64,000 nt of DNA from a phage, in the sequence record PQ826431.1. One strand, written 5' to 3'. Under the pieces are notes generated by a model. The model worked only from the letters and a program-made list of their open reading frames with translations. It had not been told where the DNA came from and searched no databases. Below are positions 61,108-63,831 of the stretch, piece by piece. The position numbers and the translations under genes are program-made. Within the stretch, counting starts at the first letter, position 1, and each line of letters opens with the position of its first letter.

Positions 61108-61356
61108 ATGTCTCTATTAGAAAAACACGTGTTTGAAGATGGTAACGGCAATGCAGTTTTTCTTTTCCATCCAGAAAAATACACATCTGAAAACAATGGT
61201 ACAACTTCTATTGTAATCACTAAAGATGTTAAAGTTATTGATTTCTTGGCTCTGATGCGAGAGATGGATCTTGAAATTAATACTTTTAACGCAGAAGCTT
61301 TGGTTGTTGCTCTTCTGGAAAAGAAAGATAGTGAAGAAGTAGCAGAATATGCTTAA
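61108..61356 (+). CDS. hypothetical protein (82 aa)
   Basis: track ORF trimmed to ATG after RBS TAGGAGGAACA. Confidence 0.55.
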   Translation: MSLLEKHVFEDGNGNAVFLFHPEKYTSENNGTTSIVITKDVKVIDFLALMREMDLEINTFNAEALVVALLEKKDSEEVAEYA

Positions 61357-61364
61357 ATAACTAT

Positions 61365-61393
61365 TGACAAACGTATCCTTCATATGTTAGGAT
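61365..61393 (+). promoter_or_regulatory. promoter (TTGACA-17-TAGGAT, ATGT box)
   Basis: same promoter class as 61951, 63038, 63803. Confidence 0.5.
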
Positions 61394-61600
61394 ACGTTCA
61401 TCAAGTGTGGTAACAGGGTCGTTGACTTTTGTTAAGAGGGGCTTGCACTGCGGTAGTGTTAGAGACTACTTCTTCAGAGGTTAGCTACCAAAGAGGAAAA
61501 GGAATAGTCTCGGCTCAAGAACTTTTACGCTGAAAGTTGGGCTTGGTCTTAGAGAATGTAGCGGTTCTCTACAATCGTCAGCGTCTCTGTTACCACATTT
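61394..61600 (+). ncRNA. candidate structured leader / small stable RNA upstream of tRNA cluster
   Basis: no ORF; several local hairpins and long-range complementarity GTGGTAACAG / CTGTTACCAC at its ends. Confidence 0.3.
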
Positions 61601-61602
61601 AT

Positions 61603-61677
61603 GGCCCTGTAGCTCAATGGGAGAGCTGTCGGCTCATAACCGATAGGTAGCTGGATCGAAACCAGCCAGGGCCACCA
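61603..61677 (+). tRNA. tRNA-Met (anticodon CAT; initiator/elongator/Ile2 not resolved), incl. CCA
   Basis: manual cloverleaf: acceptor GGCCCTG/CAGGGCC, D GCTC/GAGC, anticodon loop CTCATAA, T-arm GCTGG-ATCGAAA-CCAGC. Confidence 0.8.
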
Positions 61678-61679
61678 AC

Positions 61680-61754
61680 GTCTTTATGGTGTAATGGATA
61701 GCACAGGAGTCTTCTAAACTCTTAGTCAAGGTTCGATTCCTTGTAAAGACACCA
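61680..61754 (+). tRNA. tRNA-Arg (anticodon TCT), incl. CCA
   Basis: manual cloverleaf: acceptor GTCTTTA/TAAAGAC, anticodon loop CTTCTAA, T-arm CAAGG-TTCGATT-CCTTG. Confidence 0.8.
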
Positions 61755-61950
61755 GAACATTTTAACATGAATTAGCTCAAGTGATTTGAACCCACTACTG
61801 ATCATGGTGGCAGAGAATGAGGCAAGTATGTCAGACATTATAAACAAAGGCCACGGTTATATTAGAAGACATAAATGCTCGAAGAGCACCGTTCGTTGAG
61901 AACGGGGGTTGGTGGAGTCACCATTCATGGTAAAATGTTTTAAAAAACTA

Positions 61951-62170: not shown

Positions 62171-62303
62171 AGTTCTTTTTAATATAGCTTACTTTAATAG
62201 AGTAAACTTTCAGCAGATGGCCCCCCCACCATCTTACTGATAACTCATAGTTAGTGGTGTGAACACTGGCTATTTTAAAAAGAATTTTAAATATTAGTAT
62301 TTA

Positions 62304-62391
62304 GGTGAGTTAATTCCGTAGGGGTAGCGGGGCAGACTGTAAATCTGTTATCATTGCGATTCGGGTGGTTCGACTCCATCACTCACCACCA
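62304..62391 (+). tRNA. tRNA-Tyr (anticodon GTA), type II, incl. CCA
   Basis: acceptor GGTGAGT/ACTCACC, anticodon loop CTGTAAA, long variable arm. Confidence 0.7.
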
Positions 62392-62483: not shown

Positions 62484-62490
62484 GAATTAT

Positions 62491-62567
62491 GGACTTGTAG
62501 AGTTAAGGTAAACCCCCAGTCGCCAAGAGGCTTCTGGAATTGCAGGTATCGAATCCTGCCGAGTCCC
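62491..62567 (+). tRNA. tRNA-like element with non-canonical anticodon domain (possible pseudo-tRNA)
   Basis: acceptor GGACTTG/CGAGTCC and T-arm-like GCAGG-TATCGAAT-CCTGC present, but no 5-bp/7-nt anticodon arm. Confidence 0.3.
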
Positions 62568-62686
62568 AGAAAAGAAACAGGGTCGCTCCCTGTAAGTCGT
62601 CCAACTGAAGCCCACTGCGGTGTTCCTCCTCCCACAGTTTAACTGTGTTCTGGTCAACATCAAGCATGGTTGAAGGGGCGCAATAT

Positions 62687-62762: not shown

Positions 62763-63037
62763 ACACAACATTAAGAGCACTGTGATTGATCGTCGTATCC
62801 TGTGCACAAGGTCTGTTCGAAAGACAGTGTTCTTAGTATTGTGTTGATCACACAAAAAGAGTCACCTGAAACTTGACCGGAGTAGGGTTGGATGGGGTAA
62901 AAGAAGAAGCGGCTCTCCCATCGACAGCAACGAAGAATAATATTTGACTTTGGTTTTGTATTATTTTAAGTTAGCTTACCGAACGTAGGGCTAGTCACCC
63001 AATGGGATACTCGTCACTGTCCCACTCAATAAAACTA

Positions 63038-63152: not shown

Positions 63153-63250
63153 AATTATTTAATAAAGGGTTGCCAGAAAACTTTCTCTTTTACTCATGGT
63201 TTTCTCCTTCTCTCACACCTCTTCTGGTTGCCCTTCATTAAATGATTTAT

Positions 63251-63490: not shown

Positions 63491-63560
63491 TTCCCGTTAG
63501 ACTTACAGGATAAGAGTTCCACAACTTATTGTGATGCTGGTTCGAATCCAGCACGGGATA
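63491..63560 (+). tRNA. tRNA-like element with degenerate anticodon arm (possible pseudo-tRNA); no encoded CCA
   Basis: canonical T-arm GCTGG-TTCGAAT-CCAGC and acceptor TTCCCGT/ACGGGAT but anticodon region forms CACAA-CTTA-TTGTG hairpin (4-nt loop). Confidence 0.3.
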
Positions 63561-63760: not shown

Positions 63761-63785
63761 AGCCTCCTTATTGGAGGCTTTTTGC
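63761..63785 (+). terminator. intrinsic terminator after tRNA cluster
   Basis: hairpin AGCCTCC-ttatt-GGAGGCT + TTTTT. Confidence 0.7.
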
Positions 63786-63802: not shown

Positions 63803-63831
63803 TTGACTTATTATTTTTTATATGTTAAGAT
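63803..63831 (+). promoter_or_regulatory. promoter (TTGACT-17-TAAGAT)
   Basis: same class as tRNA-region promoters. Confidence 0.5.

Follow-up and report, generated by a model that had tools for sequence, protein, structure and literature searches.

A structured non-coding leader RNA at the head of the Phapecoctavirus tRNA cluster

A segment downstream of a promoter, ahead of the first tRNA of a phage tRNA cluster, folds into a five-armed RNA, and its alignment across relatives shows it to be a real non-coding structured RNA, kept by compensatory change. The segment was analyzed within the window, i.e., the whole stretch of phage DNA under study, 64,000 nucleotides in length. We give an even chance to the reading that this leader, about 200 nt long and genus-specific, is co-transcribed with a tRNA-Ile2-like tRNA and tRNA-Arg (UCU), released by RNase P, and acts as a free stable RNA. 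The leader is a previously undescribed orphan structured RNA, new as a family; in kind, it belongs with the small RNAs of phage tRNA operons.

Locus, promoter and fold of the leader

The tRNA-cluster region of the window belongs to Phapecoctavirus (phAPEC8-like), a genus of the subfamily Stephanstirmvirinae: positions 61300-61700 were 100% identical to Escherichia phage phAPEC8 and to many members of the genus. The leader sits at the start of the cluster, ahead of the first tRNA gene; between 61603 and 63645, 10 tRNAs were identified by ARAGORN and 11 by Rfam. The leader stretch carries no annotation in the record of phAPEC8, and a 34-codon ORF is annotated inside it in the record of PsgM04F. 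No Pfam domain was found in the five ORFs flanking the leader, including one annotated as 'transposase-like' in phAPEC8. The following features were distinguished:

61364-61404, no strand assigned: palindrome around promoter P1, from -35 to about +5; 16-nt arms, 88% complementary, 9-nt centre
61364-61393, + strand: putative promoter P1, TTGACA, 18-nt spacer and TG-n-TAGGAT (extended -10); motif score and clade conservation
61400-61602, + strand: leader RNA proper; fold, 11-sequence alignment and consensus structure, both ends putative
61403-61425, + strand: clamp helix h1, 5' strand, including GTGGTAACAG; 22 pairs with 61578-61600, one bulged base
61445-61459, + strand: hairpin h3 (GCACU/AGUGU); two pairs changed on both sides
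61462-61511, + strand: long arm h4-h7 with apical hairpin GGU-UAGCU-ACC; covarying pairs in h4 and h6
61512-61543, + strand: arm h8-h9 (GGCUCA AGA ACUUUUA CGC UGAAAGU UGGGCU); the most conserved arm
61544-61577, + strand: arm h10-h11 with the conserved GUAGC loop motif; seven pairs changed on both sides (two in h10, five in h11)
61578-61600, + strand: clamp helix h1, 3' strand, including CTGTTACCAC; stops 2 nt short of the tRNA
61603-61677, + strand: first tRNA, anticodon CAU, probably of the tRNA-Ile2 type (ARAGORN, Rfam); sets the 3' end of the leader
61680-61754, + strand: tRNA-Arg (UCU), gene 2 of the P1 transcription unit (ARAGORN, Rfam)
62763-62845, no strand assigned: 21-pair hairpin directly after tRNA-Thr; z -4.7 against mononucleotide shuffles

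P1 is of the sigma-70 type, with TTGACA at 61364-61369 and TAGGAT, preceded by TG, at 61388-61393; its promoter score was 10/12, with TG. The first-pass annotation had reported a TTGACA-N17-TAGGAT promoter at 61365-61393; the promoter sequence is present, but it starts one base earlier, at 61364, and the spacer is 18 nt long. The counterpart of P1 in the phiWec clade is TTGACA-N17-TAAGAT. P1, presumably used as a promoter, represents a recurring promoter type of this phage, since the motif TTGAC-N15-18-TGTTANNAT was found 4 times in the window versus 0.07 expected. The palindrome around P1 is kept in both clades (z about -5 in each), with two positions compensated between them. Its possible roles are that of an operator bound by a dimeric regulator and that of a 3'-end hairpin in read-through RNA from the upstream gene.

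Judging by promoter geometry, the 5' end of the leader would lie near A61400, seven bases past the -10 element. The position of the tRNA places the probable 3' end at the RNase P cut expected ahead of G61603 (61602/61603).

The + strand of 61394-61602 folds with -76.8 kcal/mol (z -4.95 against the shuffles of the tool, none of 200 shuffles being as stable), and with a separate set of shuffles, z was -5.5 on the + strand versus -3.1 on the - strand. The fold of the - strand reached -53.7 kcal/mol, so that the + strand was better by 23 kcal/mol. In the window sequence, 15 of the 72 consensus pairs are G-U and turn into A-C mismatches on the opposite strand. Owing to these G-U pairs and the energy gap, the + strand RNA is identified as the folded one; promoter and tRNAs are on this strand, too.

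The overall shape is a multi-arm junction with five arms, closed by the 22-bp clamp helix, inside which a weak helix, h2, was found. The multiple hairpins described by the first-pass annotation are thus part of a single five-armed + strand fold with z of about -5. The long-range complement that it expected to close the segment, GTGGTAACAG (61407-61416) with CTGTTACCAC (61587-61596), lies inside the 22-pair helix of 61403-61425 with 61578-61600 and does close it, both sequences belonging to a longer inverted repeat. The clamp begins about 3 nt past the presumed start site. In the long arm, covariation was seen in h4 (A-U to G-C) and h6 (C-G to G-C), with an invariant apex, GAGGUUAGCUACCAA; arm h8-h9 is invariant except for a single U-A to A-U swap. 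The GUAGC loop of h11 could pair with GCUAC of the h7 apex, with a predicted duplex energy of -7 to -13 kcal/mol; both motifs are invariant, hence the predicted loop-loop contact carries no covariation signal.

The first tRNA showed 80.8% identity by blastn with ileZ of Stx phages, with the acceptor and T stems in common in the alignment. It had been taken for tRNA-Met at first; a tRNA with the CAU anticodon does begin at 61603, but its ileZ-like stems suggest that it is more likely of the tRNA-Ile2 (lysidine) type. Copies of this gene with 95-96% identity are present in many T4-like phages. The succession of tRNA (CAU) and tRNA-Arg (UCU) serves the same pair of rare codons (AUA, AGA) as ileZ-argN.

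Conservation, coding potential and distribution

Covariation was analyzed in an alignment of 11 sequences (10 distinct) from three lineages, with about 78% identity between lineages. The RNAalifold consensus comprised 72 pairs in 11 helices, and 13 of the 72 pairs showed changes on both sides that keep the pair, a count that rests on only about three independent lineages, with a handful of events per pair and no broad phylogeny. Standard pairs occupied 98.3% of the cells of the alignment versus 41-49% when the 3' partners were slid by 1-3 columns; the same controls gave 0-1 doubly changed pairs in place of 13, and the observed covariation score was reached by none of 500 shuffles. In h3, the sequence differs in each lineage (CACU/AGUG, CAUC/GAUG and CACA/UGUG), and the one-base indels of individual isolates are located in a junction and the h3 loop. 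The covariation check proposed with the first-pass annotation thus bore out a structured RNA ahead of the first tRNA and downstream of the promoter, the fold of which is preserved in relatives by compensatory changes.

The clamp behaved differently from the rest of the leader: between the window and phiWec181, 1 of its 46 columns differed versus 45 of 164 elsewhere (Fisher p = 7e-5). Since pairing alone would not demand this, the sequence of the clamp itself is constrained beyond its pairing.

No ORF credible as a gene was found between the promoter and the first tRNA, as had been noted earlier. The longest frame (61429-61533, 34 codons) has a TTG start, lacks a Shine-Dalgarno (SD) sequence and is open in all three lineages. 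Its dN/dS was 0.75-0.97, and its differences were evenly spread over the codon positions (6/9/6 versus phiWec181 and 7/8/6 versus the IMG/VR variant); 1-nt indels shift its frame in nepoznato, ESCO5, REC and DIJ07P2. A small protein gene at this position was ruled out by the dN/dS, the even codon spread, the absence of an SD sequence and the frameshifts, and the 34-codon annotation in PsgM04F is spurious. We regard it as highly unlikely that the segment is either that ORF or a neutral relic, i.e., decayed tRNA genes or a decayed small gene folding by chance. An openness of the frame in three lineages and its annotation in one record speak for the ORF, against which stand the four observations just listed. 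The tRNA cluster is indeed mosaic, with many indels and pseudo-tRNA-like pieces, as a relic would have it, but the leader has no match to tRNA models even at E ≤ 10, and 13 doubly compensated pairs are unexpected in neutral sequence.

By blastn, the leader was found in 71 phage records. The main clade comprised 65 of them with 98.6-100% identity, and the second clade six (phiWec179, phiWec181, phiWec186, phiWec188, phiWec190 and PsgM04F) with about 80% identity. A third variant, L006 from IMG/VR, was reached via a search with the upstream protein, and a pattern scan of metagenomes added one further sequence to each of the second and main clades. The leader was present in all 71 records with a close ortholog of the upstream gene (82 aa, at least 60% identity), in one place per record and each time linked to the same tRNA. 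Improbable hosts are given for several records that almost match E. coli Phapecoctavirus sequences (Pseudomonas phage PsgM04F; Campylobacter phages B15, A150 and A110a; Acinetobacter phage ABPW7), labels that may reflect contamination or mis-assignment.

A distant ortholog of the upstream gene (about 46% identity) was found in 57 records, mostly of phi92-like phages, two of which were examined: PHB05 (sister genus, phi92-like) and Citrobacter phage Tr1. The leader was absent from both: in PHB05, the first tRNA lies 8 nt past the stop codon of the upstream gene, and in Tr1 the gap between the upstream gene and the first tRNA is 92 nt. A covariance model of the leader, R1, built from the 11-sequence alignment, revealed no copy in the tRNA regions of PHB05 or Tr1 and no paralog elsewhere in the window. 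A pattern of the conserved core, applied to IMG/VR and metagenomes, retrieved the same genus only. A pattern of the clamp helix with a free interior gave 7 unrelated loci in IMG/VR and GTDB genomes, about the number estimated by hand for chance, and none of them fits R1. A host origin was rejected, as no match to the leader was found among 5,426 E. coli genomes. Because the leader occurs in all records with the close ortholog and not in PHB05, Tr1, T4 or E. coli, leader and promoter together are an addition peculiar to Phapecoctavirus.

Compared with the sister genus, the segment represents an insertion, its promoter lies within a conserved palindrome, and the clamp arms resemble terminal inverted repeats, all of which would suit an element acting as DNA, whether as an operator, as a site of origin-like unwinding or priming, or as what is left of a small mobile element bounded by such repeats. 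We consider such a function very improbable. On the other strand, as in a cruciform, the 15 G-U pairs would turn into A-C mismatches; the fold of the + strand is better by the margin given above; the four inner hairpins show compensatory changes as well; and the segment occurs as a single copy, without paralogs in the window or a flanking target-site duplication. A MITE/IS-like element, for which the inverted termini would speak, was rejected on the same grounds of copy number, missing target-site duplication and strand-specific G-U pairs.

Known RNAs and other elements of the cluster

The Rfam/Infernal scan suggested at first pass showed that the leader matches no described family. In 61394-61602, no match to any Rfam 15 family, with 6S, tmRNA, Y RNA, pRNA, ribozymes and riboswitches among them, was found at gathering thresholds, and at E ≤ 10 the scan of the cluster gave none in the leader; when the leader alone was searched at E ≤ 10 in two lineages, only an 11-nt chance match of 11.6 bits was obtained. 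No tRNA-type match was detected inside the leader by ARAGORN or by Rfam RF00005 up to E ≤ 10, and a tRNA or tRNA-like element was ruled out, as neither revealed a cloverleaf or T arm.

The leader resembles rnaC (species 1) and rnaD (species 2) of T4, which are likewise small structured RNAs of a phage tRNA cluster with unexplained function. In the T4 annotation, these two small stable RNAs lie within the tRNA cluster next to tRNA-Arg, and both are made by processing of tRNA precursors. T4 rnaC is also strongly structured (z -4.6). However, rnaC and rnaD, of 139 and 119 nt, are shorter than the leader and located 3' of a tRNA, whereas the leader lies at the 5' end of the transcript, and rnaC has a tRNA-like T arm (CCGGGUUCGAAUCCCGG), which the leader lacks. 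Model R1 gave no match at E ≤ 10 in T4 68000-76000, the region of the tRNAs, rnaC and rnaD, and blastn of the leader gave no T4-like match. The analogy with the T4 stable RNAs drawn in the first-pass annotation therefore holds for the position in the tRNA cluster but does not extend to homology of sequence or structure, nor to a T arm.

The clamp recalls the leader-trailer helices of rRNA operons (RNase III stems), in which a long-range helix of about two turns similarly surrounds a large folded domain and sequence near the transcription start pairs with sequence flanking a stable RNA gene. The helix of the rRNA operon, however, encloses the mature stable RNA, whereas the leader clamp encloses its own non-coding domain. 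No boxA/boxB antitermination motif was recognised in the leader. RNase III substrates need a stem of about 20 bp or more, near-continuous; the clamp, with 22 pairs and one bulged base, reaches this length and is a plausible RNase III substrate in this respect.

The '6S-like' leader of the PR'-tR' region in Stx/lambdoid phages, situated before ileZ-argN-argO, shows the same order of elements: promoter, non-coding bases, tRNA-Ile (CAU) and tRNA-Arg (UCU). It comprises a few hundred non-coding bases after a strong promoter, and its first tRNA is the relative of the phage one described above. The two leaders gave no blastn match, and R1 scored at most 10 bits on the Stx-phage leader with filters off. 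The Stx leader acts via a terminator and Q antitermination, whereas the Phapecoctavirus leader has no terminator.

The large ornate RNAs GOLLD and ROOL are structured and non-coding, have an unexplained function and often occur beside tRNA genes in phages and prophages. Cryo-EM structures of GOLLD and ROOL were reported (PMC12286853). Both are Rfam families, three to four times larger than the leader, and neither matches it.

No terminator-like site was found in 61394-61603, the first one on the + strand outside tRNA genes being at 63761-63779. A riboswitch or attenuator was ruled out, as there is no terminator and the downstream gene is a tRNA, with no SD sequence to sequester. CsrA-type GGA sites, Hfq ARN sites and a boxA-like motif, inspected by eye, were not conserved between the clades. 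A scan for antisense 11-mers within the window gave 14 versus about 6 expected, none longer than 12 nt, and nothing beyond chance. A search of the literature for transcriptomes of Phapecoctavirus or its subfamily yielded nothing relevant.

Several other elements of the cluster were recorded. The second ORF-free stretch reported as structured, 62763-63035, is so in its first 83 nt only: this part forms the 21-pair hairpin (z -4.7), whereas the remainder gave z values of +0.2 and -1.7 and the whole stretch -1.5. The hairpin is about 97% conserved between the clades, the only change in its stem being A to G in phAPEC8, which gives a G-U pair. Over the whole of 62763-63035, substitutions are few; conservation between the clades is high over 150 nt at the 5' end and over 50 nt at the 3' end, with a variable middle.

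The spacer after tRNA-Gly (63153-63250) was 100% identical in five aligned Phapecoctavirus sequences, above the conservation of the tRNAs. Its fold (z -6.1) consists of a large CU-rich loop on a stem of about 25 pairs, and it has homologs in PHB05 of the sister genus, Citrobacter phage Tr1 and Klebsiella phage phi1_175008. Among four sequences, 7 of the 25 pairs of the stem are doubly compensated, and its wobble pairs point to the + strand. The invariant core of the loop, CUCAUGGUUUUCUCCUUC, is the exact complement of a perfect SD sequence plus AUG (GAAGGAGAAAACCAUGAG); because of this complementarity, the loop may be either anti-SD-like, as RNA, or, on the minus strand, the ribosome-binding site of a mini-ORF of 8-14 codons. 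Present across the subfamily, this element may be of greater interest than the leader.

The spacer after tRNA-Arg (61755-61945) has a 17-pair terminal helix (GAACAUUUUAACAUGAAU with AUUCAUGGUAAAAUGUUU; z -3.6) with one compensatory change, C-G to U-A, in the phiWec clade; its flanks are conserved, its middle is variable, and it encloses a 37-codon ORF annotated in PsgM04F. Segment 61989-62075, missed by ARAGORN in the window, scored 37 bits against Rfam tRNA-Sec, and its counterpart was identified by ARAGORN as tRNA-Ser (UGA) in PsgM04F, the IMG/VR contig and PHB05. A tRNA-Tyr at 62304-62388 was found by Rfam only (39 bits) and was missed by ARAGORN, as were 62490-62570 and 63492-63560, which fold like truncated cloverleaves. 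The mosaic nature of the cluster is seen in a segment of about 115 nt before tRNA-Thr (62570-62686), present only in the window and PsgM04F, and in a block of about 85 nt after tRNA-Gln (after 63326), present in phAPEC8 and phiWec and missing in the window; in the second clade, a small ORF takes the place of tRNA-Asn. A strong intrinsic terminator on the + strand (AGCCTCC-TTATT-GGAGGCT, then TTTTT) at 63761-63779 closes the cluster after the last tRNA, and past it, at 63803-63831, there is a further promoter of the same extended -10 type as P1.

Possible role of the leader

In the reading to which we gave an even chance, host RNA polymerase would start at P1, near 61400, and the nascent RNA would form four arms: h3, h4-h7, h8-h9 and h10-h11. 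The domain would then be closed by pairing of nt +4 to +26 with the 23 nt ending two bases before the tRNA, which yields the 22-bp clamp. A cut by RNase P at 61602/61603 would free a leader RNA of about 203 nt. With both ends buried in the clamp, this RNA would be protected from exonucleases and from 5'-end-dependent decay and could be long-lived, and the clamp would be long enough for an RNase III site. The freed leader may act in trans, e.g., as a protein-binding scaffold or decoy; candidate recognition surfaces are its invariant parts, namely the clamp, arm h8-h9 and the apical loops.

The main rival, which we consider possible though rather unlikely, is a purely cis-acting role, in which the domain and its clamp serve the downstream tRNAs only and the excised RNA is a by-product. 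The folded domain could prevent mispairing between leader and tRNA, shield the 5' end from RNase E/RppH, or serve, in the manner of the leader-trailer helices of rRNA operons, as an RNase III entry that sets the rate at which the tRNA-Ile2-like tRNA and tRNA-Arg (UCU) mature. Its geometry agrees with such roles: it spans from about 3 nt past the presumed start to 2 nt before the tRNA, and 22 bp suits RNase III. The leader was never seen apart from its tRNA. Spacers 61755-61945, 62171-62285 and 63153-63250 are likewise closed by terminal helices, a point against a released RNA, as it could indicate a generic cis role in which spacers are folded away from the tRNAs. The RNase P protein of E. coli normally contacts the single-stranded leader upstream of a tRNA; since the clamp reaches tRNA position -3 and thus occupies this contact zone, release may be slow or may require RNase III first.

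Against a purely cis-acting role, the first tRNAs of the sister genus phage PHB05 and of Tr1 do without such a leader, which is therefore not a general requirement for tRNA processing. Moreover, four compensated inner arms, an invariant h8-h9 arm and two invariant loops exceed the needs of a clamp or shield. Because of the leader-free sister genus, the compensated inner arms and the invariant arm and loops, we favour a role of the released RNA. A more specific version of it is in our estimate improbable: transcribed from an early promoter of its own, the leader would target a host or defence protein in trans, e.g., as a decoy or inhibitor of an enzyme that processes RNA or attacks tRNAs, among which RNase III, TilS, RNase P and anticodon nucleases are candidates. 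If true, it would mean a new class of phage RNA for take-over or anti-defence, with the tRNA-processing machinery as its means of delivery.

Phapecoctaviruses are common phages of E. coli and are widely considered for therapy. With this leader, the few unexplained non-tRNA RNAs of phage tRNA clusters gain a further member beside rnaC and rnaD of T4. The leader also offers a clean genetic test case, with a sister genus that lacks it, an invariant closing helix and arms tolerant of compensatory change. Action in trans would imply that phages deliver regulatory or decoy RNAs by way of RNase P processing, and action in cis would represent a new control over the maturation of rare-codon tRNAs.
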